Assembly: GCA_963765535.1 (NCBI GenBank)
Contig: CAVXWU010000017.1
Coordinates: 160,199 to 224,198 of the forward strand
Direction of reading: 5' to 3'
From: an uncultured Verrucomicrobiae bacterium
GTDB taxonomy: Bacteria; Verrucomicrobiota; Verrucomicrobiia; Limisphaerales; JAHDYP01
Length of the DNA: 64,000 bases
The translations under genes and the position numbers were made by a program. Positions 3,801-40,007 of this stretch are shown one piece after another. Every line of letters begins with the position of its first letter. The first letter of the stretch is position 1. The notes beneath the pieces were generated by a model. That model was not told the origin of the DNA. It saw nothing but the letters and a program-made list of their open reading frames with translations, and ran no database searches.

Positions 3801-4533
3801 CGCGCTCGCCGACCCCAAGAGCTGGAGCGCCGAGCTGCCTCAAGGGCAATCGCGCATCGTTTCACTGCGCGAACCCGCGGCTGACGGCCAGCCCTGCGTG
3901 CATCCGTTGGGCACGCTCACCGTCCGCCAAAGCGTGGTGCCCCTGAATCTGGAACGCGACATCGACAAGTTCGGCGATGCGCCGGTGGCCGGCGCCCGCC
4001 GTTTCAAAGTCACGCGTGTCACTGTGGGAACTGGCGAGGAATCGGCCAACGCCGTGGCGGACGATTTTGCGCCCGCTCAATTTTTCGAAATGAGCGACGA
4101 TGCCAAGCTTGCGAGCCCGTCGTTCGAGTCGATGCAGGCGGGGCTGCGTATCGGTTCGTCGCAGTTCGCGTTCGGCTTCTCGGAACGCATCGAGTCGCCA
4201 CTCGAATACGAGACGCGCATCATCGATCGTAAAGCGGCCGTGCCGCCTCCGGCGCCAACGCGCGATTACCGTCTGAGCGAGGCGCTGCTGCAAATCCATG
4301 CGCGGCACGGCGCCGCTGGCCGCAGCAAGCTGCGTTCGGCGCGTCCCGCGACGGCGAAACCGTTTGCCAGGATCGAGCCGGCGCGCTGGAACGCGGTCGA
4401 TGAAGACCTGGCGCCATTGCCCAACGCGAAACGCGACGTCACCTTCGTCGAGGCGTTGGGCAGCGCGGCACTCAAGCGCCAACGCATGGTCGTGCGCGAG
4501 TTCGAGTTGGCGCAAACGGAGGAGCCGCAATGA
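886..4533 (+). CDS. giant hypothetical protein B (1215 aa), family not recognised
   Basis: Uninterrupted 3.6-kb ORF with an ATG 11 nt after the upstream stop. Its stop overlaps the next start (ATGA at 4530-4533). I see no signal peptide, long hydrophobic segment, Walker A or HExxH. A Pro/Ser/Ala linker (STPSAASASPPAETRSGSAPAEARPAIKPPDLP) splits the protein. Distinctive blocks are GGMHHGFTPPAGFPALERV and FEIFWWDVSIRVNV. Confidence 0.85.
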   Translation: MAEPTNKKDDKTLLQKAAGCIVDFGEWMFEHFIVDPHSRALTALVDDLGGTLKEPPKFPTTFNLAQLKAYLEAPRPDLEAWIGGIRDIAKLIECVRAIKDAVELGGEPATEEFVQSALDLMASNYVRDRWFHLFVVMELLRFSSEPMTLYGPHGTAGQRFYGSLKSIVKFALGPIAAVCEHPLETEADARKLSDQTLLHLAAVFAFMGNSAREIGLDAMPEDEHWIRMFYGWDEPKGALTELQREAPAADDVSERMLSVQVRKPPESFQDDAIDIEGALRFSLGWVPAEHGGPGLFVSVGGSAFRFFVDSEPAAWAAQADVRFDAPFSIQIGGEKALRIDGVLDDGELHADLAVASKPMPAGERRFKFSVSGDNGLEIGRIALSGVLDQESARGQLSFYDCRLALDGTSFDDFIGSLLPKTQTSVEFSFGVGISTRDGFFITGDLSTPSAASASPPAETRSGSAPAEARPAIKPPDLPVTSTGLKGRGIPIQIPIGKSVGPVRLHHALLNLDRDTSGDSPKMLLQAAVSFSGQIGPVLATVDLLGVKLAIDFPDDRSKANLHFAQVDVGFVPPAGIGLAVDAKSVKGGGFLFRNEAKHQYAGVMELSLSGVIALKAIGLLSTRLPDGSKGYSLIILVTGQTAEPGGSLLQLPLGWRLTGIGGLIAIHRTVDEDALRIGLKDHTLESILFPKDPVRNAPTILAALDRVFPPKRGSYLFGLMVQLQWGLPTLIELNLGLILELGGRNRFVVLGRMTSILPRRDNDLLRLNLDAVGIFDFDQGTVAIDALLVDSRLLRRFPLTGAGALRARWTSPRSFALAVGGMHHGFTPPAGFPALERVALSLTTGDNPRLTCDAYFALTSNTVQFGAHAHLYAAAYGFNVTGEAGFDVLIQLLPFHFLAEFYASMQLRKGSRNLFKVKVEGALEGPLPLAVRAKCTFEIFWWDVSIRVNVTLVSGQAPPVAIAVDASAQLRAALADPKSWSAELPQGQSRIVSLREPAADGQPCVHPLGTLTVRQSVVPLNLERDIDKFGDAPVAGARRFKVTRVTVGTGEESANAVADDFAPAQFFEMSDDAKLASPSFESMQAGLRIGSSQFAFGFSERIESPLEYETRIIDRKAAVPPPAPTRDYRLSEALLQIHARHGAAGRSKLRSARPATAKPFARIEPARWNAVDEDLAPLPNAKRDVTFVEALGSAALKRQRMVVREFELAQTEEPQ

Positions 4534-7463
4534 GCGATGCCAGTGTCGTCTTCCTGCCGTGGGTGCGACAAGGTCTGGCGGCGCGGATCGCGACGGCCGA
4601 TCCGTTGACGGCGCCACTGCCGGCGCAGGCGCCGCTCGACATCGCGCTGGCGGTGAACAACTCGAACGCGGCCTCGATGGGCGTGCGGCTGATTGGACCC
4701 GCCGATGTCCTGGGCATCGACCCGCGACAAGTCATCCGCACCGAGCCGCCGGCCGGCACGGACAACTATGAATCGAACGACCTCGCCGCCATCGAGTTTG
4801 ACAATCCGGATCTGCCGTGGCTGTTCACACCGGCGGCGGCCGGCGCGCAGGGTCGATTGCGTCCCTGGCTGGTCCTGGTGGTCGTGCGCAAGACGGACGG
4901 CGTGCGGCTGCGACCGCCGCGCGATGAACCCCTGCCAGTGCTGGAGATTGCACCGCCGGCCTTGCCGTCGGCGGAGTTGCCGGATCTCGCAGACTCGTGG
5001 GCCTGGGCGCATGCGCAGCTCGGCACGCACGAAAACGCCACGGAAGACGATTTGCGCGCCGTGCTCGACTCGCGCCCGGAGCTGTCGGTCTCGCGGCTGT
5101 TGTCGCCGCGATTGCTCACCGCGTTCACCGATTACATTGCGTGCGTCGTGCCGGCGTTCGAGACGGGACGGCGCGCGGGGCTGGGTCAGAGCGCGGACGC
5201 GAACGCGGCGCTGACGCCGGCCTGGATGAGCGGCGCGAACGCTCCCGGGACGATTGCCTTGCCGGTGTACTACCACTGGGAATTCCGCACCGGTGCGCGC
5301 GAGGACTTCGAGTCGATCGTAGCGCGCCTTGCCCCGCGCGATTTCACCGATACGGTGGGGCGTCGGGCGATGGACATCACCACGCCGGGATTCGCGGTGC
5401 CGGCGACGATCACCCCGCTCGCGATGCTCGAAGGCGCGTTGCAGCCGATCCAGGCGCCGCGCGCGGTTTTCCCCGACGCGGCAACGATGCCGTGGCAAGA
5501 GTCGCTCCGATCGATCCTCAATACCGCCAACTCGCATTCCACGGCGGCCGATGCCGAGCCGGTGCTCGGGCCGCCGATCTACGGCCGCTGGATCGCCAAC
5601 CGTCACGAGGTCGGCACTCTTCCCACCGGAAACTGGCTCGACGAGTCGAATCTCGATCCGCGCGAGCGGGTCGTTGCCGCTTTGGGCACGCGGGTCATTC
5701 AGGAACAGCAGGAAGACCTGATGGCCGATGCGTGGGAACAAGCCGGCGAGATGGCGCGGGTGAACCAGCGACTGCGACAGATGCAACTGAGCCTCGCGAT
5801 CACCCGCAGCCTGCATTTGCGCCATGTCCAACGCATGATCGACGATGACACGCTCTGGCGATTCGCGGCGCCCGCGCAGTCGCGCTTGCTGATGCCCGGC
5901 GTCACGGGGGTCACGATGCGATCGATGCTGGCCTCCTCATCCACGCCGCACGTGGTCACCTCGGCCGCGATGCGACGGTTGTCACGTCCGCGCGGTGCGA
6001 TCAGCCGGCGCGCGGCTGTTGCGGTGCGCGCGGCGGGCATTCAAGCACCGGCGACCTCGGACACCGTTGGCGTCGCGTCCATGTTTCGGCTCTACGACGC
6101 GCAACGCTGGGTCATGATGTTTACCCTGCCGCAGACCCGCGGCATGGTGACTTTCGATGCGGTCACCAAGCGGCTGCCCGCCCAGTTCGCCGGCATGACC
6201 TACGCCCGCGCAACCGACGCCGCCGTCGCGTCCATGCCGGGGCGTCCCGCGTTTGTCGTGACCGCCGAACCGGCTCCCGTCATCGGTGGTTTGCATGCCG
6301 ATGTGCAGGGCGGCGGTCGTGTTGTGACGGCCGCGCTTCCCTCGCACTTAAGGCTGCGACCACGCGACGATGATTTCCCCGAGCCGCCGGACACCGAGCC
6401 TCCCCGGCCGACGGATCCCCTGCCACGACCGCCTCGTGTCGACACCGCCGACGCCAAGGCATTTCGTCAGGCGGCGGTCCGACACCTCGGAGTCGTGAAT
6501 CCACAACAGCCGCTCATTTTCGTTCGGGCGGTCAAGCGCCCGGCCCTCAATTTCGCCGCCGCGCGGGTTCAAGTGCGTGATCTGCTTGACCCGACGCCGG
6601 TATTCAAGCTTCGCGTGGCAGCGACAATTCGCATCGAAGGCGCCGAGGCGCCGCCCGAAGTCGGACCCATCGGCAGCGCACCGGTTTTTCCCCAGCCCAT
6701 GTCCGAGGCGCTGGCCGTGCTATCGCAGGACTGGCTGTTGCCCGGACTGGAGCGCGTGCCGGTCGACAGCGTGGCGCTGCTTGAGCCGAACGAGCGGTTC
6801 ATCGAGGCATTCATGCTCGGTCTGAACGTCGAGATGGGACGCGAGCTGTTGTGGCGCGACTACGCCGTAAACGATCCGCGCGCGACGTTTTTTCGCCGCT
6901 TCTGGCGCGCGGTGAATCCGCAGGGCGACGGCGACATCGCACCGCTCGCCGAATGGGCGGATCGGCATCTCGGAGAGAACCAGGCGACAGAGAATCCATC
7001 GAAGCAAACCGTGCTGCTCGTGCGCAGCGTGTTGTTCCGCCGATATCCAAGCGCGAGCGTCTACGCGGTGCCGGCAGTGAAGGAAGGCAACGGCAGGAAG
7101 CCCGGCCCGCAGACGAGCGAGCTCCATCCGCTATTCCGCGGCTCGCTGCAACCCGACGTCACATTCTTTGGTTTCAGCCTCGATCCCGACGTGGCGACCG
7201 GCGACCCCGGTTGGTACCTCGTCATTCAGCAGCAGCCGACCGAGCCGCGATTCGGGTTCGATGTCGAGATCGATTTCGGCACGGCGACGCACGTTGCGAT
7301 CGACGCACCCCCCGCGGGGCACACCCTGCCCGCCGGCACGACGTGGGCGTTCAATTCGGCGCACATGGCTCAGATCATCCGGCAGCAGCCGGTGCGGGTG
7401 GCCATCCACGCCACGGAGCTGATCAAACCGAACCAGCGAGGTGTCGCCTCGGACCATGCATAA
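4530..7463 (+). CDS. giant hypothetical protein C (977 aa), family not recognised
   Basis: The start is translationally coupled to B (ATGA overlap). Distinctive N-terminus: MSDASVVFLPWVRQGLA ... GPADVLGIDPRQVIRTEPP ... FDNPDLPWLFTP ... LRPWLVLVVVRK. There is a Pro-rich linker (DFPEPPDTEPPRPTDPLPRPPRV). No catalytic motif seen. Confidence 0.85.
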   Translation: MSDASVVFLPWVRQGLAARIATADPLTAPLPAQAPLDIALAVNNSNAASMGVRLIGPADVLGIDPRQVIRTEPPAGTDNYESNDLAAIEFDNPDLPWLFTPAAAGAQGRLRPWLVLVVVRKTDGVRLRPPRDEPLPVLEIAPPALPSAELPDLADSWAWAHAQLGTHENATEDDLRAVLDSRPELSVSRLLSPRLLTAFTDYIACVVPAFETGRRAGLGQSADANAALTPAWMSGANAPGTIALPVYYHWEFRTGAREDFESIVARLAPRDFTDTVGRRAMDITTPGFAVPATITPLAMLEGALQPIQAPRAVFPDAATMPWQESLRSILNTANSHSTAADAEPVLGPPIYGRWIANRHEVGTLPTGNWLDESNLDPRERVVAALGTRVIQEQQEDLMADAWEQAGEMARVNQRLRQMQLSLAITRSLHLRHVQRMIDDDTLWRFAAPAQSRLLMPGVTGVTMRSMLASSSTPHVVTSAAMRRLSRPRGAISRRAAVAVRAAGIQAPATSDTVGVASMFRLYDAQRWVMMFTLPQTRGMVTFDAVTKRLPAQFAGMTYARATDAAVASMPGRPAFVVTAEPAPVIGGLHADVQGGGRVVTAALPSHLRLRPRDDDFPEPPDTEPPRPTDPLPRPPRVDTADAKAFRQAAVRHLGVVNPQQPLIFVRAVKRPALNFAAARVQVRDLLDPTPVFKLRVAATIRIEGAEAPPEVGPIGSAPVFPQPMSEALAVLSQDWLLPGLERVPVDSVALLEPNERFIEAFMLGLNVEMGRELLWRDYAVNDPRATFFRRFWRAVNPQGDGDIAPLAEWADRHLGENQATENPSKQTVLLVRSVLFRRYPSASVYAVPAVKEGNGRKPGPQTSELHPLFRGSLQPDVTFFGFSLDPDVATGDPGWYLVIQQQPTEPRFGFDVEIDFGTATHVAIDAPPAGHTLPAGTTWAFNSAHMAQIIRQQPVRVAIHATELIKPNQRGVASDHA

Positions 7464-7513
7464 ACATTTCAATTCACCAGATGCCAGTGGCCCGTCTGGC
7501 GGACCCTCGCTGA

Positions 7514-7590
7514 TAGAATCCTTGATCCAGCTAAACAACCCCATGAAAACTTGACCTTTTCGCAACACGTTCGAGCGATCAAGGATTCTA
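7514..7590. promoter_or_regulatory. perfect 14-bp inverted repeat with 49-nt spacer in the only real intergenic gap of the giant operon
   Basis: TAGAATCCTTGATC at 7514-7527 and its exact reverse complement GATCAAGGATTCTA at 7577-7590. The local sequence is visibly AT-richer than the flanks. The right arm ends 14 nt before the GGAAGG Shine-Dalgarno-like motif and ATG (7605) of protein D. Confidence 0.5.
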
Positions 7591-7604
7591 GACGGAAGGC
7601 AACG

Positions 7605-10600
7605 ATGGCCCTGCTCCCTCCCCCCAGCGATCTGACCGGATTCACCGCACCGTCTCTGCCGCCGGAACTGACGGCGTCGTTCGCCCCATCCGATCACCCG
7701 CTGCTGCTGTTGCCGGTGCGGCTGGAGACCCGCTTCTTCGCGATGGCCGACGGCACACAGGAGTTGCGCGTCCGCATCTATCCCGATCAGATTCACGTCG
7801 ATTCGCATGAACCTGCGCTCTCGGAGGACGAGCAACGGTGGGGCCAACACTTCTGGGAACAGACCTGGCGCGCCGGCCACGACGAAGCCCGCGAACGCGT
7901 CGCCTGGCAGCAGCTCGCCGATCGATTCGATGCACGGCGCGCCGCGTGGATCGCGCGAGCGTTAAGTCCGACCAACCTGCAGGATTGGCCGTCCTCGGCC
8001 ATTTCACCGGATGAACCGTTGCCGGTCGCGCCCCAGCTCAGTCCTGCCCCGAGGCTTGCAGATCCCACGGGTGGAAGCTGGCAGCGCGCACCGCTTGCAC
8101 GCGCCATGCCCCAACGCTGGATCGCGGTCGCCAGCGCGCGGGGCACGCTGGTGGCCCATGCCCTCGGAGCATCCGTCGATGCCGAGCCCGCAGTCGGTCC
8201 CAACCCGCTCGACCGGACGGATTCGGCCCCGGATCAACCGGCGATTGATGACGGCATGCGCTGGATGATCGACTTCGACGAAGCGGAAAGGCGCGGCATG
8301 GCGATGCGCCTCAAATTGCCGGCGGCGAGCGCCCAGCAAGGCATCGACGCGCTCGTCGTGTTCGGCGTGGCGGAGCTCGATCCAACAGCGGGATCGGCTG
8401 CCATTGCGGCGTTGCTCGACGCGCATCACTACACGGACGGGCTGGGTTTCCTGCGGGTGGGGACACCGACCAATAACAGCGTCGAGGCCGCGTCGGGCTG
8501 GTCGTCGCTCGATTCCATGCATGGGCGCAGCTTCGACCTGGAATGCCGGGCGCCCGAGACGCCGAACGGCAGCAACGCCGATGTCCTGGGCCATGCGCTC
8601 GGGTTCGATACCGCGGTAACGCATGCGACCTTGCGCAACCTTTGCGACGCTGCGTTGATTGAGCAAATCGACGCGCAGCAGATGGCCACGGCCTTGTGGC
8701 CGGCGACGTGGGGCTACTACTTGTTAAATCTAATCGGCTTCGATGGCACCGGCCTCACCGTCGATGCCATCGCTTGGGCGCGCGAACATTTCATCGCTCA
8801 TGTGCGAGCGTTCGGCCCGCTGCCCACGTTACGGGTGGGCCGGCAACCCTACGGCGTGTTGCCGGTGACACCGCTCGACGGGCAGCCGGCAGCGGTCACT
8901 GATGCGCGCGAGCGCTGGCTCGCGACAACGCTGAAGACGCTCTCCAACCGGCTCTGGCAACCCCGCACGCCCGACGTGCCGCGCATCGGGCGGAGCGACG
9001 ATCCCGCTCTGGATCTCTCCGCTGTGCTCCAAAGCGACGCGATCTCGCATTCCTATCGGCTGCGTTACCTGCTCGGGCCGCGTTATCTCGAACACCTGCG
9101 CAAATTCCTGGGCGAGGATCTTGCCACGTCCGGCTGGCTTGGCGCGCAGAACTCCATTGCCCGCGTGGCGCTGAATGCCCTGGGTCTCGCGTGGCATGCG
9201 CGTCTCGAGCATGCCACATTCTCCGAATCGGACATGCCGATGAATGCGCCGCTGGTGCAGGCGGGCGACCTCGAGGGCGCAGACGCGCTGCAACCAGACT
9301 ACATCGCATCGCTGCTCTCCGACCCGCCACTGCCGATGGACGAGACCGCCGTACCGCCTGCGATGCCGGCGCCCGCGACCCTGCTGCATCTGTTGTTGCG
9401 GCACTCGCTGCAGCTCGAGTACACCGCCGCCGCCGCGCGTCTGGCGAACGCCCCGGCTGGTGGAACGACACTCGCCGCGCTGTTGCACGAGCATGAGCTC
9501 GTCAACCTCAATGCGGCGACCGCCGTCACGACGTGGCGCATGCTGCTGTCGCGCCCGAGCCCGGCTACCAACAACGAACCCCCGGCCGCGTTTCTCAAGC
9601 GCCTCACCGATTTCGGCGCGTCCGAGCTCAAGCCGCTGGGTGAGTTGCGCGCCGCGCTCGCGCATCTCCAGGGACTGTCACCCGAAACACTCCGGCGTTT
9701 GCTGATCGGCACGATTGACGTCGCATCCCACCGCGTCGACGCGTGGATCACCTCGCTCGCGTCGCGCAGACTCGCGGCCCTGCGCGCGCAGAATCCTGCG
9801 GGCTTGCGCATCGGTGGTTACGGGTGGGCACTGAACCTGAAGCCCGACATCGCGGTGGCGCCGGTGGCAACGCCCCCCGGCGAGACCGGCCAGGTATGGG
9901 CAAGAACGGACGACAGCGGTTTCATCCACGCGCCATCCATCATGCAGGCGCAAGCGGCCGCCCTGCTGCGTAATGCGCATCTCACCCATTCCCGCAGCGA
10001 TGCGCAGGATCTGTTCGCCGTCGATCTGTCGTCGCGCCGCGTCCGACTCGCGAATCTGCTGCTCGATGGGGTGCGCCAGGGCCAGCCACTGGGCGCGCTG
10101 CTCGGTTATCTGTTCGAGCGACGCCTGCACGAACTGCGGCTCGATCACACGATCGACGATTTCCGTGCGGCGGCGCCGCTGCTGCCGGTGAACATCGCCG
10201 CCACGGCGAAGCCCGAAGAGTCCATCGCCGCGCGCAACGTGGTCGACGGACTCAAGCTGCGCGAGCTGCGTAACGATCCCAATGCTCCCGCCGCGCTCAA
10301 GGCGCTTTTCGCACAGTGCGCGCCCGCGCTCGAGGTCCTCGAGGATGCCGTGGACGCGGTCAGCGATGCGGCGGTGGCCGAAACGGCATTCCAGGCGGTG
10401 CGGGGCAACATCGTGCGGACGGGGGCGACCCTGCAGGCGATTGCCAGCGGCGAAGCGCCGCCGCCGGAACTCGACGTCGCGCGCACACCCCGAACTGGCT
10501 TGGCCGTGGCCCATCGTGTCGTCGTGCTGTTCAACGCCGTTGCGGCTCCCGCTGCCCCGGCGTCGCCTCGCGCGCAGGCCGAGCCGCATCTCAACGCCTG

Positions 10601-11987
10601 GGCGGCGAAGTTGCTGGGGCCGTTCGACAAGGTTCGATTTTCCGTTGAGCAGCTAAACCCCGAAGGCGCCGTGATGCGAACCGTACAAGTCCGCTTCGAC
10701 GCGCTCGCCCTTGCGCCGATCGACGTCGTGCATCTCGCGCCCGCGCGGCCTGGCGAACCGATGCCGGAAATCGACGCGCGCGCTCTCGCCGCCGGCGCAA
10801 CCAACTTGGGCCCCCTGGGTCCCGGACAAATGTTGCGGCTCAATCGCCAGCGCGGCGCCGACTGGCTGCCGGCGGAGATCGGTCTTGACGAGTTGACGGA
10901 GCTCGCAGCGCGGGCGCGGCAAGTGTTCACCGGCGCGCGCGCACTTGACGCTCGTGACCTCTCAGGACTGGAGCAGACCGTGGACGCCGGGATCGATGCG
11001 GCGGAGTTCGACACTCGGGCGCAGGTGTCGATGAACTCACTTGTATCCGCGCTCGCAACACTGCAGTCGCGGCTCGCGGCGCCCGTGCCGGCCAATGCGG
11101 ATTCCCTGCAAAACGCCATCATCATGTTTGGCGGCTTCGGTATCCCGGGCTCGCTGCCACGGCCGCTGGCCGATTCCGCCGAGCTCGCCGCCCAGGGAAG
11201 TGCAGTGTCGCGCGAGGCGGCACATCGCATCGAGCGCGCCAAAGCCGCGACCAGTTCGCTCGATCGCATGCGCGCCGTGTTCGGTGATGCCTTCCTGGCG
11301 CTGCCTCGCTTCACGTTGGGGGATTCCACCGGGTTTGGGCAGTCGCTTGCCGCCACCCGCGCGTTGCAGGGAGGTAGCGTCCTTGCGGTGTATCCGTGGT
11401 TTCAGCAGGCGCAACGTGTGCGCGAGCCGCTATCGCGCCTGGGTGCAAGTCTGCACGCGGCTGAGGTCGTCAGCGCGGGCGCGGGCATGGAGCTTGCCGT
11501 CGCGCAGCTTCCCCATGCGCCGGACGACCGCTGGGTGGGCTTGCCCGCGGATCCTGGGCGCGAGATGCCCGCGGGCCGGCTCTCGTTCGTCGTGCATGCC
11601 GATGCGTCGCTCGATGTGTCGAAGCCGCTCGCCGGAATCCTCGTCGACGAGTGGGTGGAGGTCGTGCCGTCGACGACCGAGACGACGGCGATCGCGTTCC
11701 AGCACGATGCGCCCGATGCGCGCGCGCCCCAGGCAATGTTGCTCGCGGTGCCGGAAGTGCCGGGCGATCCCTGGACCGGCGCGGCTTTGCATCGGTTGTT
11801 GCTCGATACGCTGGCACTGGCCCAGGGGCGTGCCGTCGATGCGGAAGCGCTGGACATCGCGGCGCTGAATCCGATGCCCGGCGCGCAGGCCATTGCCGAG
11901 GTCTCGCACTTCCTACCGGCGCTGCATTTTGCGGTGAATGTCGATGGCGATACGATTTCGCCTGACTTTCGAGCCCTGACGAGTTGA
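7605..11987 (+). CDS. giant hypothetical protein D (about 1460 aa), family not recognised
   Basis: 4.4-kb ORF. I prefer the ATG at 7605 (preceded by GACGGAAGGCAACG) over the TTG at 7551 used by the ORF track. Distinctive blocks: LLLLPVRLETRFF, LRVRIYPDQIHVDSHEPALSEDE, LRVGRQPYGVLPVTPLD, GGYGWALNLKP, GFIHAPSIMQAQAAALLRNAHL. No Walker A, HExxH or TM segment seen. Confidence 0.85.
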   Translation: MALLPPPSDLTGFTAPSLPPELTASFAPSDHPLLLLPVRLETRFFAMADGTQELRVRIYPDQIHVDSHEPALSEDEQRWGQHFWEQTWRAGHDEARERVAWQQLADRFDARRAAWIARALSPTNLQDWPSSAISPDEPLPVAPQLSPAPRLADPTGGSWQRAPLARAMPQRWIAVASARGTLVAHALGASVDAEPAVGPNPLDRTDSAPDQPAIDDGMRWMIDFDEAERRGMAMRLKLPAASAQQGIDALVVFGVAELDPTAGSAAIAALLDAHHYTDGLGFLRVGTPTNNSVEAASGWSSLDSMHGRSFDLECRAPETPNGSNADVLGHALGFDTAVTHATLRNLCDAALIEQIDAQQMATALWPATWGYYLLNLIGFDGTGLTVDAIAWAREHFIAHVRAFGPLPTLRVGRQPYGVLPVTPLDGQPAAVTDARERWLATTLKTLSNRLWQPRTPDVPRIGRSDDPALDLSAVLQSDAISHSYRLRYLLGPRYLEHLRKFLGEDLATSGWLGAQNSIARVALNALGLAWHARLEHATFSESDMPMNAPLVQAGDLEGADALQPDYIASLLSDPPLPMDETAVPPAMPAPATLLHLLLRHSLQLEYTAAAARLANAPAGGTTLAALLHEHELVNLNAATAVTTWRMLLSRPSPATNNEPPAAFLKRLTDFGASELKPLGELRAALAHLQGLSPETLRRLLIGTIDVASHRVDAWITSLASRRLAALRAQNPAGLRIGGYGWALNLKPDIAVAPVATPPGETGQVWARTDDSGFIHAPSIMQAQAAALLRNAHLTHSRSDAQDLFAVDLSSRRVRLANLLLDGVRQGQPLGALLGYLFERRLHELRLDHTIDDFRAAAPLLPVNIAATAKPEESIAARNVVDGLKLRELRNDPNAPAALKALFAQCAPALEVLEDAVDAVSDAAVAETAFQAVRGNIVRTGATLQAIASGEAPPPELDVARTPRTGLAVAHRVVVLFNAVAAPAAPASPRAQAEPHLNAWAAKLLGPFDKVRFSVEQLNPEGAVMRTVQVRFDALALAPIDVVHLAPARPGEPMPEIDARALAAGATNLGPLGPGQMLRLNRQRGADWLPAEIGLDELTELAARARQVFTGARALDARDLSGLEQTVDAGIDAAEFDTRAQVSMNSLVSALATLQSRLAAPVPANADSLQNAIIMFGGFGIPGSLPRPLADSAELAAQGSAVSREAAHRIERAKAATSSLDRMRAVFGDAFLALPRFTLGDSTGFGQSLAATRALQGGSVLAVYPWFQQAQRVREPLSRLGASLHAAEVVSAGAGMELAVAQLPHAPDDRWVGLPADPGREMPAGRLSFVVHADASLDVSKPLAGILVDEWVEVVPSTTETTAIAFQHDAPDARAPQAMLLAVPEVPGDPWTGAALHRLLLDTLALAQGRAVDAEALDIAALNPMPGAQAIAEVSHFLPALHFAVNVDGDTISPDFRALTS

Positions 11988-12005
11988 CCACAATCCAAGA
12001 CCACC

Positions 12006-13736
12006 ATGGGATCGATCACAAGCTGGATCCGGCTCGAGCCGCGCTGCCGCGATGACGATATGAAGGAGGCGGTGCAGGCGCGCATCTACGATCCCTTCTG
12101 GATGCTGGCGCGGCAATGGCAAAGCGGCGAATTTCAAGGCGAGGATGCCGGCACGCCGGTGATCGCGCGCTGGCGCGCCCAGAGCGCGCCGATCACCCGC
12201 TACCATGCCGGCGCCCTACCACCCAATACGCGGATCAACGCGCCGCGCTACGATCTGCGCGCGATGCCCCTCGAAGCATTGGTCGAACATCGATCGTTGC
12301 ACACACCCGCCCTCAATGGTTCCCTGCGGCTGGCGGTCGAATCCGGTTTGCATTTTCTGCGCATGCTGGAGGCCCAACCCACCTCACGCAGCTATCGTCC
12401 GGATTTTCTATCACGCTTCGCCTTGCAGCCGCCCACAGACGCCGAGCGAGCAGAACTCGACGACGAGACGTTGTCGTATTGGAGGCTGATGGCACTGCGC
12501 GCACCCGATGCCCGGCGTCTGCTTGCGGCGTTTCGTGATGCTCAAGGAGGCCGACGCCCGGTGCCTGCGGACATGAGCATTGACCCCGGCGATAAAGCTG
12601 AGGTCGAGGCCGCCATGGGTGACTGGCTCGCGATGCACGATGCCTTGTTCACCCAGCCACAAACCGAGGCACTCGACGCCTGGGACCCCGAACGCCTGGA
12701 ATACGCCTTCTCGATTGCGGGCGCGCCCGGCAACGAAGAGACGCCACTGACCGCCACCCGTTACGCCGAGGGTCATCTCGATTGGTACAGCGTGGATCTG
12801 GACCTGGAGATCAATCTCGGCGCGGCGGCGGACAATGCCAGCGCGTCGCTGGTTCGCACCACGATCCCCGTCCCGGTGAGCTTTCGCGGAGCGCCCGCCC
12901 AGCGCTTTTGGGAGATTGAAGATTCGGCGATCGACTACGGTTTGCTGCCCGCGGGCCCCGGCGATATTCCGCATCTGATGCTGAGCGATTTTGCGACCAA
13001 CTTCGGCAACGACTGGTACGTCATTCCGATCGACCTTGATATTGGCACGCTGACGGTCACGGCCTCGCTCGTGATCACCGACAGCTTCGGGGTGCAGACG
13101 TTGATTTCGCCGATCAACAATCCGTCGAAACCCAGGACGGGCTGGTCGATGTTCGAGCTCAGCTTCGTCCAGCGCGGCGAGACGGGCTTGCGGCCGCGAT
13201 CGAATTTGGTGTTTCTCGCGCCCAGCCTCCTGCGCACGCTCGACAGCCGGCCCGTGGAGGAGGTGCGGTTCATGCGCGATGAGATGGCGAACCTGGCGTG
13301 GGCGGTCGAGCATGTGGTGCAAGGCCCGCTTGAACAGCGCATCGAGCCCACGGCCCTCGCCGACCCACCACAGACCTCTCTGCCGACCCCGGGCGCAATC
13401 CCGTCCTATCGCCTCGCCACGGATGTGCCGCTGAATTGGACGCCCCTTCTGCCGCAGCGAATGACGGACCCGCCATCGCTGCGGTTGGTACGCGCAGGGA
13501 TGCTCGCGCCCGATGGGACAAACGTGGTGAGGCATGCGCGCGGCGAATTGCTGAACGCGTCCCCCAAACTCGCGCTGTTCGACGAGGAGATCCCCAGAGA
13601 AGGAGTGAGCGTCACGCGACAGTTCGAGAGGACTCGATGGATGGGGGGTAGCACCCTGCTTTGGGTAGGGCTTCGGAAGAAGGTGGGAAAGGGCGAGGGA
13701 TCGAGCGCGTTGCGGTTCGATGACGCCAGCGAATAA
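12006..13736 (+). CDS. hypothetical protein E (576 aa), family not recognised
   Basis: The ATG lies 18 nt after the stop of D. Distinctive blocks: IYDPFWMLARQWQSGEFQGEDAGTP, HLDWYSVDL, RFWEIEDSAIDYG, FGNDWYVIPIDL. The stop at 13734-13736 lies about 9 nt before the repeat array. Confidence 0.85.
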   Translation: MGSITSWIRLEPRCRDDDMKEAVQARIYDPFWMLARQWQSGEFQGEDAGTPVIARWRAQSAPITRYHAGALPPNTRINAPRYDLRAMPLEALVEHRSLHTPALNGSLRLAVESGLHFLRMLEAQPTSRSYRPDFLSRFALQPPTDAERAELDDETLSYWRLMALRAPDARRLLAAFRDAQGGRRPVPADMSIDPGDKAEVEAAMGDWLAMHDALFTQPQTEALDAWDPERLEYAFSIAGAPGNEETPLTATRYAEGHLDWYSVDLDLEINLGAAADNASASLVRTTIPVPVSFRGAPAQRFWEIEDSAIDYGLLPAGPGDIPHLMLSDFATNFGNDWYVIPIDLDIGTLTVTASLVITDSFGVQTLISPINNPSKPRTGWSMFELSFVQRGETGLRPRSNLVFLAPSLLRTLDSRPVEEVRFMRDEMANLAWAVEHVVQGPLEQRIEPTALADPPQTSLPTPGAIPSYRLATDVPLNWTPLLPQRMTDPPSLRLVRAGMLAPDGTNVVRHARGELLNASPKLALFDEEIPREGVSVTRQFERTRWMGGSTLLWVGLRKKVGKGEGSSALRFDDASE

Positions 13737-13744
13737 CGGACGGC

Positions 13745-15087
13745 GCGTTCGAGGACGAAACTAACTCGCAATGAACTTCCCGCGCGTCGGTTGTCGTCCT
13801 CGTCCGTCGTCGTCGTCGTCGTTCTCGGGGCAATTCGTATTGAGTGTCGAGGACGAAGGACGAGCCCAACTTCGCGAACATTTCTCGCTGTCCGGTTGTC
13901 GTCCTCGTCGTCGTCGTCGTTCTCGTCCTCGGGGCAATTCGTATTGAGTGTCGAGGACGAGGGACGAGCACGAGCACGAGGAGGAGGCCAACTTCGCGAA
14001 CATTTCCCGCGCGTCGGTTGTCGTCCTCGTGGTCGTCGTCGTTCTCGTCCTCGGGGCAATTCGTTCAGCCATCGAGGACGAAGGACGAGCCCATCTTCGC
14101 GAACGTTGCCCGCGCGTCGGTTGTCGTCCTCGTGGTCGTCGTCGTTCTCGTCCTCGGGGCAAACTCGTTCAGCATCGAGGACGAAGGAGGAGCCCAACTT
14201 CGCGAACGTTTCCCGCGCGTCGGTTGTCGTCCTCGTGGTCGTCGTCGTTCTCGTCCTCGGGGCAATCGTTCAGCATCGAGGACGAAGGAGAGCCATCTTC
14301 GCGAACTTTCCCGCGCGTCGGTTGTCGTCTCGTGGTCGTCGTCGTTCTCGTCCTCGGGGCAAACTCGTTCAGCATCGAGGACGAAGGACGAGCACGAGCA
14401 CGAAGGAGGAGCCCAACTTCGCGAACGTTTCCCGCGCGTCGGTTGTCGTCCTCGTGGTCGTCGTCGTCGTCGTTCGTCCTCGGGGCAAATTCGTTCAGCA
14501 GTCGAGGACGACCGAGCGAGGACGAGCCCAACTTCGCGAACGTTTCCCGCGCGTCGGTTGTCGTCCTCGTGGTCGTCGTCGTTCTCGTCCTCGGGGCAAT
14601 TCGTTCAGCCATCGAGGACGAAGGACGAGCACGAGCACGAAGAGGAGGCCAACTTCGCGAACGTTTCCCGCGCGTCGGTTGTCGTTCTCGTGGTCGTCGT
14701 CGTTCTCGTCCTCGGGGCAAACTCGTTCAGCATCGAGGACGAAGGACGAGCCCACTTCGCGAACGTTTCCCGCGCGTCGGTTGTCGTCCTCGTGCTCGTC
14801 GTCTCGTCCTCGGGGCATTCAGCATAGACGAAGGACGAGACGAGGAGGAGCCCAACTTCGCGAACATTTCCCGCGCGTCGGTTGTCGTCCTCGTGGTCGT
14901 CGTCGTTCTCGTCCTCGGGGCAAACTCGTTCAGCATCGAGGACGAGGACGAGCACGAGGAGAGCCCATCTTCGCGAACGTTTCCCGCGCGTCGGTTGTCG
15001 TTCTCGTCCGTCGTCGTCGTTCTCGTCCTCGGGGCAACTCGTTCAGCCATCGAGGACGAAGGACGAGCACGAGCACGAGGAGGAGCG
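13745..15087. repeat. non-coding tandem array, 12 units of about 98-124 bp
   Basis: The anchor CGCGCGTCGG (a variant in unit 2) occurs at 13781, about 13884, 14008, 14111, 14214, 14312, 14433, 14548, 14669, 14771, 14872 and 14985. Spacings are 103, 124, 103, 103, 98, 121, 115, 121, 102, 101 and 113. Consensus unit: CCAACTTCGCGAACGTTTCCCGCGCGTCGGTTGTCGTCCTCGTGGTCGTCGTCGTTCTCGTCCTCGGGGCAAACTCGTTCAGCATCGAGGACGAAGGACGAGC, with or without an (ACGAGC)n/GGAGGAG tail. Unit lengths are mostly not multiples of 3, and every frame on both strands is low-complexity and broken. Confidence 0.9.
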
Positions 15088-15184
15088 CGGGCGAACGTCG
15101 AAAACTGAACATCGAACGCCCAAGTCCATGCGTCGGACGTTGCAGCTCACTCTCACGTCCTCGGGCGGCGAGGCAACCGCTGCG

Positions 15185-16360
15185 TTACGCGCTCCCGGTA
15201 GCCGCTCGCCACGCGTTGATCAGCGCCCTGACGTTGGCTTGGGCGGTGGGAGAGTTTTCCCGGACATTATCGACCGGCGACAGGATGAACCCCCCGCCGG
15301 GAGCCAGCAGACGTATGGCTTCCCCGACCTCGGCCTCCACTTCCGCCGCGGTGCCCTGTTCGACAGTGAGATGTCCGTTGACGCCGCCCCAAAGGCACAC
15401 CTTATCGCCCAACTCCGCCTTGGTCTGGGCAAGGTCCCATGCGTGAGGATCGACACCAATCACGACATCGATTCCGGCCTCGACGAATAGCGGCAGCAAC
15501 TTCATGCAATTGGAAGTGATGAGGTACCCGAATCGAGCCCCATGGGCATGCGACAGCGCGACATCCGCCTGCACGATCGGCAACAGGAAACGCCGCCAGG
15601 TCGCCGGCGTCCAGAAGTCCAGATTCTCGTACCACGCCCGTTTGATGAAGAGATCGATTCCGGATTCCAGCACGGTGATCATGCGGCGGCGGTTCCAAGG
15701 GGCAATGATCTCCAGAAGATCGGCGACGAATTGCGGCTGGTCGTGGATCGCATACACGAGACTGTCGAGTCCGTGAATCCATGCGATCAAGTCCGCCCCA
15801 ACTCCCCAGCCTCCCGCGACCAGCAACTGATGTTGCCGGGCAAGGGACAGGACCGGCTCTGATTCGCGGCGATAGGCCGTAATCTCCTCAGGGGCTAGCG
15901 GCGCCAGCAAGAAACGCAATGCTTCCAGATCCCGCGGACCCGCGATCAGGAACTTGCGGGATCTGGGCACAATAAAGTCGTCCAGGAAGGGCACGTGCTC
16001 GCCCCAGGGCCAGTCGTCGGTCCGGCGCACCTCGGCCCGCAGCGTGCCAGCAGGGGTAATATACTCCTTGACCATGAGGGGCGACCCCGCCTCCGGGGAA
16101 TCCTCCTGCCACTCCCGAATCGTGACCCGTGGATCGTGGCGAACCGGGAGGCCGTGGAGGTTATAGTGGTCGTTCACTACTATCGGCGGGCGTGGCGGCA
16201 ACTGCACGAAGGGATCCAGGCCAAGTTGCACCTGCCGTTCGATAAAATCGGTGTAGTCGCGGCAGGTTGACTTCAGACTGTTGAATAACATGAAGCTGCA
16301 CGGCACGTGATCCGGCTCCCGTCGGCTGAGCGCGGTGAGCATCCGTTCACGGGAGTTCAT
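15185..16360 (-). CDS. uroporphyrinogen decarboxylase (URO-D) family protein
   Basis: The N-terminus MNSRERMLTALSRREPDHVPCSFMLF is typical of URO-D/MtaA-like family members. The 391-aa length fits. Confidence 0.6.
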   Translation of the reverse strand: MNSRERMLTALSRREPDHVPCSFMLFNSLKSTCRDYTDFIERQVQLGLDPFVQLPPRPPIVVNDHYNLHGLPVRHDPRVTIREWQEDSPEAGSPLMVKEYITPAGTLRAEVRRTDDWPWGEHVPFLDDFIVPRSRKFLIAGPRDLEALRFLLAPLAPEEITAYRRESEPVLSLARQHQLLVAGGWGVGADLIAWIHGLDSLVYAIHDQPQFVADLLEIIAPWNRRRMITVLESGIDLFIKRAWYENLDFWTPATWRRFLLPIVQADVALSHAHGARFGYLITSNCMKLLPLFVEAGIDVVIGVDPHAWDLAQTKAELGDKVCLWGGVNGHLTVEQGTAAEVEAEVGEAIRLLAPGGGFILSPVDNVRENSPTAQANVRALINAWRAATGSA

Positions 16361-16529
16361 GGGGTGGTTGACATCGGGTGTGTCCCCAGACCATGCCGGG
16401 GCCGCGACTCGCCGTCAAATGCGGCGTTGCGGAGTCATCCCTATTCCGGGCAGGCGCAATCCCAACAACGAAAATCGAGTTCGGCGGCTGGGCGTGTCCG
16501 GGTCGCCATTCGGTTTGCGAGAAGAAAGC

Positions 16530-16814
16530 GGCCGGTGGATCAAGGCCTACCAGCGCGCGGCTGTAAAGAAGAGTTGGCAACCGATCCTCCTCTACGCCGT
16601 CGTCGCTCGGGAGGTGGACCCGCCCCGGGGTCAAGAACCGAACCAGTGGGTGCTGGTCACGGATTGGAAAGTCGATCGTCTTGAGATGGCGGTGCGGATG
16701 ATCCAGTGGCACAGCGTGCGCTGGGGAATTGAAAGCTGGCATCAGACGCTCAAAGATGTCTGCAAAGTCCAGAAGCGGCAGGAGGAGCTCGATCCAAATC
16801 TGCGATCGATTGAA
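16530..16814 (+). mobile_element. IS4/Tn5-type transposase remnant (internal fragment only)
   Basis: ..ILLYAVVAREVDPPRGQEPNQWVLVTDWKVDRLEMAVRMIQWHSVRWGIESWHQTLKDVCKVQKRQ.. resembles the C-terminal catalytic region of IS4-family transposases. HSVRWGIESWHQTLK fits the Y(2)R(3)E(6)K signature with Y replaced by H. Only about 95 codons are recognisable, and no N-terminal DDE part or terminal inverted repeats were found. Confidence 0.6.
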
Positions 16815-17000
16815 AAGTGTGACGTTCCCCGTGAGTCGTCGTCCATTAGTGCAGTTCTGGAGACCGGCATCAAGTCCGGATCCTAATGTTCCCCGCCGCC
16901 GGATGGCCAGCATCCCGCCCTCCCGCCTCCGTCTCTCAGGCCTCCCGATCGCGCGACCGATTGCGCTTGATGCCATTTCCGGACCGCCTAAAGTCACGGC

Positions 17001-17459
17001 GTGGCGACGATCATCACGCTCCTGTTGGTCGGTGCCGCATTGCTCCTGCTCGAGACGGTGCTGCCCGGCATGATCGCCGGCCTGGTGGGGTTGGGATGCC
17101 TCATTGCCGGGGTGGTGATTGCGTACACTGATTTCGGACTGCGCACCGGCAATCTCGTGCTGGTCATCGTGCTGGTCGGTTTTGTTGTCGGCACGCTCTG
17201 TTGGATGCATTATTTGCCCGACAGTCCAGTGGCCCGGCTCTTCATTTCCCGAGGCACCATCGGCACGATCGGAGCCGAGAAACCGGAGTTGCTTCAGCGC
17301 ACCGGCACAGCTCTGACCGTCTTGCGGCCTTCCGGAGCCGCCCTGATCGACGGTCAGCGAGTGGACGTGGTCAGCGAAGGCCAAATGATCGAAAAAGGCA
17401 GCCAAATCAAAGTCGTCGCGACCGAAGGGATGCGCGTCGTCGTGCGCGCCCTGGACTGA
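17001..17459 (+). CDS. NfeD family membrane protein
   Basis: GTG start. There are two or three N-terminal hydrophobic helices ([42 protein letters not shown]) followed by a C-terminal soluble beta-type domain (..[32 protein letters not shown]..). It lies immediately upstream of floA, as in yqeZ-yqfA type operons. Confidence 0.7.
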
Positions 17460-17487
17460 GCCTAACCAGACATCGAATAGAATCATC

Positions 17488-18549
17488 ATGAACACGAAAC
17501 TGACCCTCCTGTTGGGACAAGCCATAAGCAGCTGGAACTACATCTTCTATGGGGTTGGTGCGCTGGTCCTGCTGGTCCTTGCCATTGTCGTCCTCAACTT
17601 CGGGATGATCTGGATCCGAGCCTTCGTTTCCGGGGCCAAGGCCACATTCACCGATCTCATTGCCCTGCGCCTTCGGAATATCCCTGTCGGCGCCGTCGTC
17701 GATACCCGCATCACCGCCGTCAAATCCGGCATCGAACTGAGCATTGACGACCTTTCCACGCATTATCTGGCGGGCGGCAGCATCGAAATGGTCGTGCAAG
17801 CCCTCATTGCCGCTCAGAAGGCCGGGATTCATCTGGACTTCGACCGGGCCTGTGCGATCGACCTCGCCACCAAAGGCACCGGCAAGACGGTGATCGAGGC
17901 GGTGAAAACCTCGGTGAACCCCAAGGTCATCGATTGCCCCAACCCCGCCGCCGGCAAGGCCACAATCGATGCCGTCGCCAAAGATGGAATCGTCATCAAG
18001 GCCAAAGCGCGCGTCACCGTCCGCACCAATCTCGACCGCTTCGTTGGGGGCGCCACCGAGGAAACGATCATCGCCCGCGTCGGCGAAGGAATCGTTTCTA
18101 CGATAGGCTCCGCCGACAGCTACAAGGACGTGCTCGAGAATCCCGATCGCATCTCAAAGACCGTCCTCGGTAAGGCCCTCGACAGCAATACCGCCTTCGA
18201 AATCCTCTCCATCGACATCGCCGATGTGGACGTCGGCGATAACATCGGCGCGAAACTCCAGGCGGAGCAGGCGGATGCCAACAAACTCATCGCCCAGGCC
18301 CAGGCCGAAGTGCGCCGCGCCGCCGCAGTCGCCTTGGAACAGGAGATGACCGCGCGCGTCGCCGAAATGCGAGCTCGGGTCGTTGAGGCCGAAGCCCAGG
18401 TCCCCCTCGCCATGGCCGAGGCCTTCCGTCAAGGCAATCTAGGTGTCATGGATTACTATCGCATGCGAAACATCCAGGCCGATTCCAGCATGCGCGAGAG
18501 TATTGGCGGCGCGGGTCACAGTGGGCCCGCCACGCCTCCCAACGGCTAA
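17488..18549 (+). CDS. floA: flotillin-like protein FloA
   Basis: Strong similarity over the full length to my recollection of B. subtilis FloA/YqfA, for example [42 protein letters not shown]...[36 protein letters not shown] and [20 protein letters not shown]. Confidence 0.9.
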
Positions 18550-39805: not shown

Positions 39806-39809
39806 CGCC

Positions 39810-39839
39810 ACATCCCGCCGCGCTTTTCCGCGGGGATGT
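39810..39839 (+). terminator. hairpin directly after the SGNH gene stop
   Basis: ACATCCC-GC-CGCG / loop CTTTTC / CGCG-GGGATGT: 11 bp with a 2-nt bulge. It starts 5 nt after the stop codon. No U-run follows, so intrinsic-terminator function is uncertain. Confidence 0.35.
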
Positions 39840-40007
39840 CATTGACGGATTCCGATTTCAATCTATCGTTTTCCCGCGGTCCTGCATTCATGGTAACTGA
39901 CCACAGACCGCTTTACTCCTACTTGGCGAAGGAGGTGGATATCGGAACGCGGGATCATCGCCTGATGTTCGCTTTCGCCACGGGAAGTATGGAGTGCCGG
40001 CGCCTTT

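Follow-up and report, generated by a model that had tools for sequence, protein, structure and literature searches.

The gap between two convergent genes, the last gene of a DUF6603 operon and a URO-D-like gene, is occupied by a genuine, non-coding tandem array of about 1.3 kb, which consists of 12 head-to-tail units of 99–122 bp (about 110 bp each) at positions 13766–15087 of the window (the whole 64-kb stretch of DNA analysed), with degenerate half-units at both edges. We consider it likely that the array is a lineage-private, and most likely strain-specific, intergenic minisatellite. The unit was found nowhere else in the data searched, which argues for a private minisatellite rather than for a REP family or a conserved functional element, and this result, together with the absence of the array beside every related operon examined, makes it most likely a minisatellite and not a partner of the operon. 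Its head-to-tail intergenic arrangement and unit length are also those of a minisatellite (units of tens to about 100 bp).

Organization of the array

Each unit is a module formed by a spacer, a GTC-rich left arm, a loop of 12–19 nt and a complementary, GAC/GAG-rich right arm. The spacer, of about 25–30 nt, carries TTCGCGAA and CCCGCGCG, and the right arm ends in an (ACGAGC)n tail whose length differs among units. The features of the array and its surroundings are as follows (window coordinates, strand):

12006–13736, +: protein E, 576 aa, last gene of the DUF6603 operon; intact, and of full length when compared with over 1,200 homologues
13745–13765, +: leading degenerate half-unit, with the right-arm fragment TCGAGGACGAA at 13749–13759
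13766–13868, +: unit 1, 103 bp; the most divergent, without TTCGCGAA; inner left arm truncated (GTTCTCGGGGCA); loop type C (AATTCGTATTGAGTG)
13869–13990, +: unit 2, 122 bp; loop type C, long tail
13991–14093, +: unit 3, 103 bp; loop type A (AATTCGTTCAGCCA), short tail
14094–14196, +: unit 4, 103 bp; loop type B (AAACTCGTTCAGCA), short tail
14197–14295, +: unit 5, 99 bp; loop type B minus 2 nt (deletion), short tail
14296–14415, +: unit 6, 120 bp; loop type B, long tail
14416–14530, +: unit 7, 115 bp; two extra GTC in the left arm, right arm rearranged
14531–14651, +: unit 8, 121 bp; reference unit
14531–14555, +: spacer of unit 8, with TTCGCGAA at 14533–14540, then CCCGCGCG
14556–14593, +: left arm of unit 8
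14594–14611, +: loop of unit 8
14612–14651, +: right arm of unit 8, with the (ACGAGC)n tail
14652–14753, +: unit 9, 102 bp; loop type B, short tail; 95% identity with unit 4
14754–14854, +: unit 10, 101 bp; shortened by deletions in both arms and the loop, stem still about 26 bp
14855–14967, +: unit 11, 113 bp; loop type B, intermediate tail
14968–15087, +: unit 12, 120 bp; loop type A, long tail; 93% identity with unit 8
15088–15184, +: right flank; faint traces of the unit (GCGAACGT at about 15092, TCACGTCCTCGGG at 15152–15164)
15185–16360, −: URO-D / MtaA-CmuA-like gene, 391 aa; convergent, intact
16335–16886, +: IS4-family transposase remnant (NCBIfam NF033590, E = 6e-19, profile positions 198–305 of 405)

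The twelve units and the spacings given in a preliminary description of this DNA were reproduced exactly by anchoring on GTCGGTTGTCGT ((103+124), 103, 103, 98, 121, 115, 121, 102, 101 and 113 bp), and Tandem Repeats Finder returned a single array at 13777–15068 (periods 102/103/121/122, score 1766), with an additional higher-order period of 437 bp. A profile derived from the units retrieves exactly 12 copies in the window, all on the + strand (E = 1e-24 to 2e-36), and the core motifs, at up to 3 mismatches, gave 9 and 4 matches versus 0 in shuffles. Counting also confirmed the palindrome TTCGCGAA in 11 of the 12 units (11 occurrences in the array); outside the array it occurs twice in the window (0.77 expected), both times in ordinary coding sequence.

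The array begins 9 nt past the stop codon of protein E (which ends at 13736), opening with the partial unit TCGAGGACGAA, and its right end lies about 97 nt short of the stop of the − strand URO-D-like gene (15185), so that the earlier claims about its start and about its filling the convergent gap both hold. The leading half-unit aligns locally with the consensus unit at 11/11 positions, a score equalled by 2% of shuffles, and the best local alignment of the right-flank remnant is 12/13, equalled by 3% (marginal). Judging from its sequence, the right flank may be a decayed 13th unit or a single-copy progenitor; a search for a progenitor in the immediate flanks gave only 11–13-nt matches of marginal significance. 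The open reading frames over the array are artefacts, as had been stated, and one of them, at 13948–15108, appears in the public record as a 386-aa "protein" (P0142), which is spurious and has no homologue among 5.8 billion proteins.

Variation and folding of the units

The variable part of the units comprises only three loop types and a few tail types, common to several units and found in different combinations: loop A with a short tail in unit 3 and a long tail in units 8 and 12, loop B with a short tail in units 4 and 9 and a long tail in unit 6. The most degenerate parts are the edge units 1 and 2 and the flanks. Because the loop and tail variants are mosaic and the edges decayed, we infer that the growth of the array, and its continued reshuffling, are probably due to slippage during replication and to unequal recombination among units, both of which the self-complementary arms would favour. 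The MIRU/VNTR arrays of Mycobacterium tuberculosis, which evolve by slippage or recombination and have a strain-variable copy number, are likewise composed of head-to-tail intergenic units of the 40–100-bp class, in operon-rich DNA, with indel differences between units (PMC3635867, PMC3184786). The mycobacterial elements are present at about 40 loci per genome and contain short ORF fragments overlapping the flanking genes (PMC3635867, PMC3184786), whereas the present unit is single-locus as far as visible and consists largely of a long inverted repeat. As DNA, the array would be prone to cruciform formation and is likely to vary in copy number and, if the minisatellite reading is true, it could be used as a strain-typing (VNTR) marker for this uncultured lineage.

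All 12 units fold into a hairpin with a stem of at least 16 bp (range 16–33 bp), although the statement that the inverted repeat is present in every unit was a slight overstatement, as the inner left arm of unit 1 is truncated and unit 10 is altered (TAGACGA replaces TCGAGGACGA, and the loop is of 12 nt). As RNA, unit 8 folds with −59.2 kcal/mol on the + strand (z = −4.0) and −51.7 kcal/mol on the − strand (z = −3.3), and folds of 994 nt are strong on both strands (z = −6.1 and −7.1), with no strand preference in z-score over this length; unit by unit, the + strand is modestly more stable than the − strand. The short-tail units fold no better than shuffled sequence (z about 0). Pairing of arms within a unit and between units is equally stable (−36.4 versus −36.1 kcal/mol), and an arm-swap permutation, with arms from the same or the adjacent unit, revealed no co-variation, 70% of the permutations being at least as stable, so that selection for the hairpin is not demonstrated. 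In units 3–12, variable columns amount to 8 of 68 in the spacer and left arm versus 25 of 60 in the loop and right arm, an asymmetry that is not predicted by a purely neutral model but that slippage-prone tails and alignment ambiguity could produce.

By analogy, the array may act like a REP/BIME cluster, most likely as a hairpin barrier for convergent transcripts. There is no canonical terminator between either stop codon and the array, and read-through transcripts would thus include it; coming from either gene, they would fold into a chain of 16–33-bp hairpins, at which 3'-to-5' exonucleases would stall and which would hamper read-through into the gene on the other side.

Distribution of the unit and comparison with REP elements

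The repeat is private, with no copy elsewhere in the window or in the collections searched. No copy was found in 18 related loci, nor, with the unit profile, in the remaining 62.7 kb of the window. The contig is at least 249 kb long, of which the window covers 64 kb, and low-copy dispersed relatives may lie elsewhere in the same genome. A scan with the pattern GGTTGTCGTYCTCGT-N(10–40)-CTCGGGGCA, which matches 11 of the 12 units, gave one match among 185,579 GTDB representative genomes, two in the JGI metagenomes and none in IMG/VR; these three were rejected as chance matches, since they lie inside genes (two in ferredoxin-like ORFs) and show no similarity beyond the pattern. Searches with blastn in distant mode against plasmids and phages returned nothing, or a 40-nt low-complexity match in a phage head gene. 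Spurious translations of the array from both strands served as bait for further arrays: with that of the + strand, only the window's own P0142 was returned from the 5.8 billion proteins, and the − strand ORF had 0 matches among 1.84 billion representatives. The genome-wide dispersed repeat by which the preliminary description would have been refuted was not found in these searches.

REP elements are imperfect palindromes of 20–40 bp, with stems of 5–13 bp and a GTAG or CGTC tag; in the CGTC type the stems are of 8–9 bp and the loops of 4–5 nt, with the tag unpaired at one end, and copies are dispersed in tens to thousands, with only 20–100 per genome in some families (PMC3733652). In E. coli, the BIME-2 cluster REP325 contains six 77-bp Y-l-Z2 units between yjdM and yjdN, where Y and Z2 are palindromes of 35–40 bp each, present at about 355 genome loci and tied to the RAYT transposase (PMC4550694, PMC2817692), and its units give rise to HU-binding naRNAs (PMC4550694). 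Like REP325, the array is made of intergenic tandem hairpin/cruciform units, with complementary elements alternating in orientation and two alternating linkers (here the loop, of 12–19 nt, and the spacer, of about 25–30 nt), as in a BIME alternating cluster. The number (6 versus 12) and size (77 versus about 110 bp) of the units are similar, and both clusters lie directly downstream of a gene and are thus probably transcribed by read-through. In contrast to REP325, the arms of the array are not palindromic on their own, no copy was found elsewhere, and the array is not known to bind HU, gyrase or IHF. The structural likeness to a BIME-type cluster suggested earlier holds in this alternation of complementary arms with two linkers.

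We consider it unlikely that a REP/BIME- or MITE-like family, mobilised by a RAYT or similar transposase, is dispersed through the source genome, with this array as one of its clusters and the other copies outside the 64-kb window. The alternating arms and linkers do mimic BIME-2/REP325 (PMC2817692, PMC4550694), an IS remnant lies nearby, the source species is missing from the genome collection searched, and, given the REP families with 20–100 copies per genome, finding zero in 62.7 kb is not decisive (PMC3733652). However, neither the window flanks nor any collection yielded a copy, and no ORF-level match to a second array was obtained, although proteins of the source contig (P0001, P0142) are in the database. 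Moreover, the array shares with the GTAG/CGTC superfamilies its GC-rich extragenic stem-loops and a left arm abounding in CGTC, but neither the tag nor, in the data searched, dispersed copies, its arms are not individual palindromic units, and its stems (16–33 bp), loops (12–19 nt) and units (99–122 bp) are far outside REP dimensions (PMC3733652).

The palindrome and other readings of the repeat

The preliminary description had drawn an analogy with a centromere. The F-plasmid sopC, which adjoins sopAB, has 12 repeats of 43 bp with a fixed period, each with a 7-bp inverted repeat, and the array resembles it in its twelve tandem repeats with a short palindrome each. The analogy fails in that the array has a period of 99–122 bp and no phasing, there are no partition genes nearby (the proteins encoded on either side include none of parA/parB type), and the array lies on a chromosome. 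The TTCGCGAA palindromes are spaced by 122, 103, 103, 99, 120, 115, 121, 102, 101 and 113 bp, and their helical-phase residuals are scattered over 0.43–0.95 of a turn. A centromere-like or nucleoid-organising landing pad, with a dimeric protein binding at 11–12 sites to TTCGCGAA or to the invariant spacer and left arm, is for this reason among others a quite unlikely explanation. A perfect 8-bp palindrome in 11 of the 12 units would suit such a protein, as would the roughly fourfold lower variability of the spacer and left arm in comparison with the loop and right arm, and the hairpin without co-variation suggests that the constraint may not be on pairing. However, the adjacent genes include none for ParA/ParB or another DNA-binding protein, the two further occurrences of TTCGCGAA in the window fall in ordinary coding sequence, nothing of the array is conserved in any relative examined, and in a young, homogenised array the identity of the units is explicable without selection.

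The internal order and copy number of the units are taken from a single assembly. In an independent short-contig assembly of the locus (Logan, run ERR11718635), the contig crosses the right end of the array and stops after 20 nt of it; these 20 nt contain one nucleotide more than the window, inserted at 15078, and the remainder of the contig differs by one SNP in 2,657 nt. This supports the right junction, but not the internal order or copy number. Tandem repeats are known to cause errors in assembly (PMC6868369), and the break and the indel could be taken to mean that the repeat is present but that its copy number, variant order and 1–2-nt length differences are products of assembly. We find this improbable, because the independently reproduced junction places the repeat really at the locus, the variants, with their three loop types and distinct tails, have a structure unlike random noise, and a contig break at the edge is exactly the effect of a true repeat; short-read assembly breaks at the locus are indeed explained by the array, if it is a minisatellite.

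There is also a small chance that the array is a recently evolved functional cis-element, born de novo in one Verrucomicrobiota lineage and not derived from a dispersed repeat family. It would then be either a protein landing pad on the invariant TTCGCGAA spacer and left arm, or a cluster of the REP325/naRNA kind, in which hairpin RNAs or cruciforms serve to organise the local DNA or to insulate the newly acquired GC-rich operon from host transcription. Only if it were under selection (as an insulator at the edge of an acquired island, or a cluster binding a protein or HU and RNA) would the array be informative as a de novo structured repeat cluster outside the REP/RAYT system.

Two further repeat systems were compared. 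CRISPR arrays have direct repeats of about 23–55 bp, unique spacers of similar length and adjacent cas genes; here the whole 99–122-bp unit repeats, with loops and tails shared among units, and no Cas domains occur in the flanking proteins, so that the array is not CRISPR, as already recognised. Integron attC sites consist of an imperfect palindrome between two core sites, R'' (RYYYAAC) and R' (GTTRRRY), which lie on one and the same strand; in the array, the + strand has 5 RYYYAAC and 0 GTTRRRY, the − strand shows the converse, and no integrase was found among the scanned proteins.

Transcription signals and relationship to the DUF6603 operon

No promoter-like site was found in a sigma-70 promoter scan. 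A − strand ECF-type promoter noticed by eye (GGAAAC-N17-CGTC) fits only the short-tail units and was deemed a coincidence. A cluster of intrinsic (Rho-independent) terminators was likewise rejected, as there is no such site within the 12 units and no T-run after the hairpins; the sole terminator-like match, on the − strand at the left edge of the array (13784–13767), has a weak stem of 5 bp, and 2.0 such matches are expected in shuffles. Rfam 15 gave 0 matches in the whole window at the gathering score, and at E ≤ 10 only generic hairpin matches to miRNA models over the array (16–26 bits versus gathering scores of 38–95). The array of small RNAs proposed earlier thus has neither promoter- or terminator-like signals nor an Rfam match.

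Type III toxin–antitoxin systems (ToxIN-like) have tandem repeats of about 36–40 nt directly upstream of a same-strand endoRNase toxin gene; the array differs in its units of 99–122 nt and convergent next gene, and had no PADLOC match.

The array is not a conserved companion of the operon. The DUF6603 operon of four genes recurs, with protein E 69–80% identical, at seven loci that represent six separate contexts (L003–L006 are counted as one, and L015 and L016 share a context), and in addition a JGI contig was considered through its gene calls alone. None of them has an array. The gaps downstream of the homologous operons are of 44–470 nt, and of about 2.1 kb in one case, and contain neither a tandem array nor unit-like sequence. 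The array is also missing from two loci with URO-D homologues and from two syntenic (FloA) Verrucomicrobiota loci. The functional link to the operon raised in the preliminary description, tempting as it was, is thereby left without support and, if the minisatellite reading is right, work on the DUF6603 operon need not account for the array.

A functional structured-RNA array tied to this operon, giving for instance unit-length RNAs from its 3' UTR in the manner of type III antitoxin repeats or of the REP325 naRNAs of E. coli (PMC4550694), is very improbable: the array does start 9 nt past the last stop of the operon with no terminator between, and each unit folds, modestly better on the + strand, but it is missing from every homologous operon examined, matches no Rfam family above threshold, favours neither strand in z-score, shows no co-variation, has no promoter-like site, and is not followed by a same-strand gene, as a type III toxin gene would be.

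Genomic neighbourhood

Scans of the flanking proteins against Pfam, NCBIfam and PADLOC identified DUF6603, URO-D, the IS4 fragment, NfeD and FloA, and a literature search on DUF6603 returned no papers. The GC content of the operon is 0.655–0.684, versus about 0.60 elsewhere, and this GC-rich operon was probably acquired horizontally. Relatives with FloA at least 90% identical have NfeD-FloA-HlyD-ACR_tran in common and differ to the left of NfeD. The array is thus located in a variable region of the chromosome, which differs between related Verrucomicrobiota, and rearrangement in this region is marked by the IS4 remnant, the sole transposase among the scanned ORFs of the window.

Organization of the repeat array

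A genuine tandem array occupies 13745-15087 (Tandem Repeats Finder: 13777-15068, score 1766), as first observed in the preliminary description, with periods of 102, 103, 121 and 122 bp and a higher-order period of 437 bp. Cutting it at conserved anchors gave 12 units, U1 to U12, of 103, 122, 103, 103, 99, 120, 115, 121, 102, 101, 113 and 120 bp. The unit spacings reported earlier were recovered exactly from those of the anchor GTCGGTTGTCGT, and the palindrome TTCGCGAA is present in 11 units, the number previously counted; beyond the array the window holds two copies of it against 0.77 expected, both within ordinary coding sequence. The genes that concern the array are:

886-13736, + strand, four-gene DUF6603 operon (1215 (DUF6603 protein), 977, 1478 and 576 aa, in order)
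12006-13736, + strand, 576-aa gene (protein E), full length relative to its homologues
15185-16360, - strand, URO-D / MtaA-CmuA-like gene, convergent, full length relative to its homologues
16335-16886, + strand, IS4-family transposase fragment, a 183-aa ORF flanked by the URO-D-like gene and NfeD

The array indeed begins 9 nt past the stop of the 576-aa gene, with a right-arm fragment, and ends about 97 nt short of the stop of the convergent URO-D-like gene. It is non-coding, and the ORFs across it are artefacts, as had been proposed: the 386-aa ORF at 13948-15108 (+) is a mere frame through the array, yet it exists as a public protein entry (P0142), which is without homologues.

Each unit comprises four parts:

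spacer, 25 nt, (A/T)CTTCGCGAAC(G/A)TTTCCCGCGCGTC
left arm, about 38 nt, GTC-rich
loop, 12-19 nt
right arm, 20-41 nt, GAC/GAG-rich, ending in an (ACGAGC)n tail

This tail accounts for most of the differences in unit length, in agreement with the earlier reading. A hairpin is predicted for every unit, with a stem of at least 16 bp that reaches about 30 bp in long-tail units. The long units fold far above shuffled sequences on either strand (z = -3.3 to -4.0); U4, the sole 103-bp unit tested, folds no better than its shuffles (z about 0), and 994 nt of the array show strong structure (z = -6.1 on the + strand, -7.1 on the - strand). The alternation of the arms lets a right arm pair equally well with the left arm of the next unit (-36.1 kcal/mol) and with its own (-36.4 kcal/mol). 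Permuting the arm partners did not lower stability, 70% of the permutations being at least as stable, and therefore gives no covariation evidence for selection on the hairpin.

Nature and origin of the array

We read the array, with some reserve, as a lineage-private minisatellite whose units bear hairpins and have been made and shuffled through slippage or unequal recombination. The central units (U3-U12) share 91% identity at aligned bases and differ mostly by indels. Loops of three types and tails of short, intermediate or long size are variously combined among units. Variable columns number 8 of 68 in the spacer and left arm versus 25 of 60 in the loop and right arm, and degeneracy is greatest in the edge units and flanks. 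Arrays that slippage and unequal recombination have homogenised usually show this combination of mosaic variants and decayed edges.

No relatives of the unit were found anywhere searched. A unit profile HMM retrieved, window-wide, the 12 array copies on the + strand (E = 1e-24 to 2e-36) and no further one. Across IMG/VR, the JGI metagenome contigs and 185,579 representative genomes, a pattern fitting 11 of the 12 units gave only three matches, all due to chance and located within genes, and plasmid and phage searches returned nothing relevant. Since gene callers routinely report false ORFs in arrays of this kind, translations of the array were also used as bait: among 5.8 billion proteins the + strand translation matched none but the ORF of the window itself, and a - strand ORF had zero matches among 1.84 billion representatives. 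Some REP families have just 20-100 members (PMC3733652), and low-copy dispersed relatives are possible in the same genome, the window being 64 kb of a 248,780-bp source contig; a dispersed family not sampled in the window nevertheless seems unlikely.

A protein-binding array is slightly less probable still. The preliminary description evoked the sopC centromere; the palindromes of the array lack helical phasing, and the adjacent genes include none for partition or DNA binding. Mis-assembly of the locus appears improbable. Copy number, unit order and small indels are based on a single assembly; the Logan contig of run ERR11718635 that covers the locus (L002) ends 20 nt into the array and reproduces its URO-D side, and thus this junction is real. 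Compared with the window, L002 has a C/T substitution at 17122, the sole SNP, and, within its 20 array nt, a 1-nt insertion at 15078, in the last repeat unit; the cause is either population variation or repeat assembly error.

Among known elements, no Rfam family was matched at threshold, the core-site test spoke against attC sites, and neither sigma-70-like promoters in the array nor hairpin-plus-U-tract terminators within the 12 units were found. CRISPR is excluded, as was held before, entire units being repeated. Of known objects, E. coli REP325/BIME-2, a set of six intergenic 77-bp Y-l-Z2 units, comes closest in architecture, although element size and structure exclude the array from REP/BIME membership; the earlier REP/BIME analogy stands in its structural part, and the operon link proposed earlier does not. 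Clusters of the REP/BIME type aid termination and shield the 3' ends of mRNAs, and read-through transcription can extend into them (PMC2817692, PMC4550694). On this analogy, the likeliest effect of the array would be that of a two-way hairpin barrier to convergent transcripts.

Relationship to the DUF6603 operon

The operon keeps its gene order across many metagenomic and genomic contigs. Its homologues show 69-80% identity, the named ones coming from Burkholderiales, Betaproteobacteria and Luteimonas, and over 1,200 homologues exist for protein E, the nearest of which is 80% identical. Only one of the four proteins matches Pfam, and NCBIfam and PADLOC recognise none of them; a literature search found no paper mentioning DUF6603. 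We examined seven operon loci in six distinct contexts (contigs L003-L006 (one), L007, L013, L014 and L015/L016 (shared)); one more JGI operon contig is known from gene calls alone. The downstream gaps (185, 356, 470, about 2,100, 44 and 73 nt), with neighbours all different, contain no tandem array or unit-like sequence, and the regions downstream of the closest URO-D homologues (85% and 79%) are short and unrelated. The array does not accompany the operon as a conserved partner, and the functional link suggested earlier fails, the array being absent beside every homologous operon examined. An operon-linked RNA array is accordingly very improbable.

Downstream of the operon homologue in L014, about 2.1 kb (7758-9845) is poor in genes and free of tandem repeats, and contains a tRNA gene (9631-9703, -); tRNA genes are typical landmarks of island integration. 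The metagenomic contig L003, which carries an operon homologue, has a 13-bp x 4 tandem repeat (CGCAGTGAAATCG) at 10574-10625, just upstream of a GCV_H gene.

Genomic setting

The housekeeping side of the window groups with Verrucomicrobiota, because the FloA cluster at >=90% identity contains a Verrucomicrobiota MAG. The order NfeD-FloA-(~210 aa)-HlyD-ACR_tran is common to the window and two FloA relatives, which carry entirely different genes left of NfeD; there the window has the IS4 fragment (NCBIfam NF033590, E = 6e-19, matching positions 198-305 of the 405-position profile), the URO-D-like gene, the array and the operon. Operon GC is 0.655-0.684 versus about 0.60 for the remaining window. 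This high GC and the non-Verrucomicrobiota names of the homologues, set against the Verrucomicrobiota FloA, suggest horizontal acquisition of the operon. The differences between relatives left of NfeD, the IS4 fragment and the operon GC therefore place the array at the edge of a probably horizontally acquired island, within a rearrangement-prone region.

The 392-aa ORF at 16347-17525 (-), overlapping the IS4 fragment, is probably spurious, because the L002 gene calls put + strand genes there. Elsewhere in the window, a 33-bp x 2.3 tandem repeat (38195-38269) lies inside a 665-aa ORF (37808-39805) with no Pfam match, and the GC content of the window reaches its minimum, 0.53, at 38001-40000.
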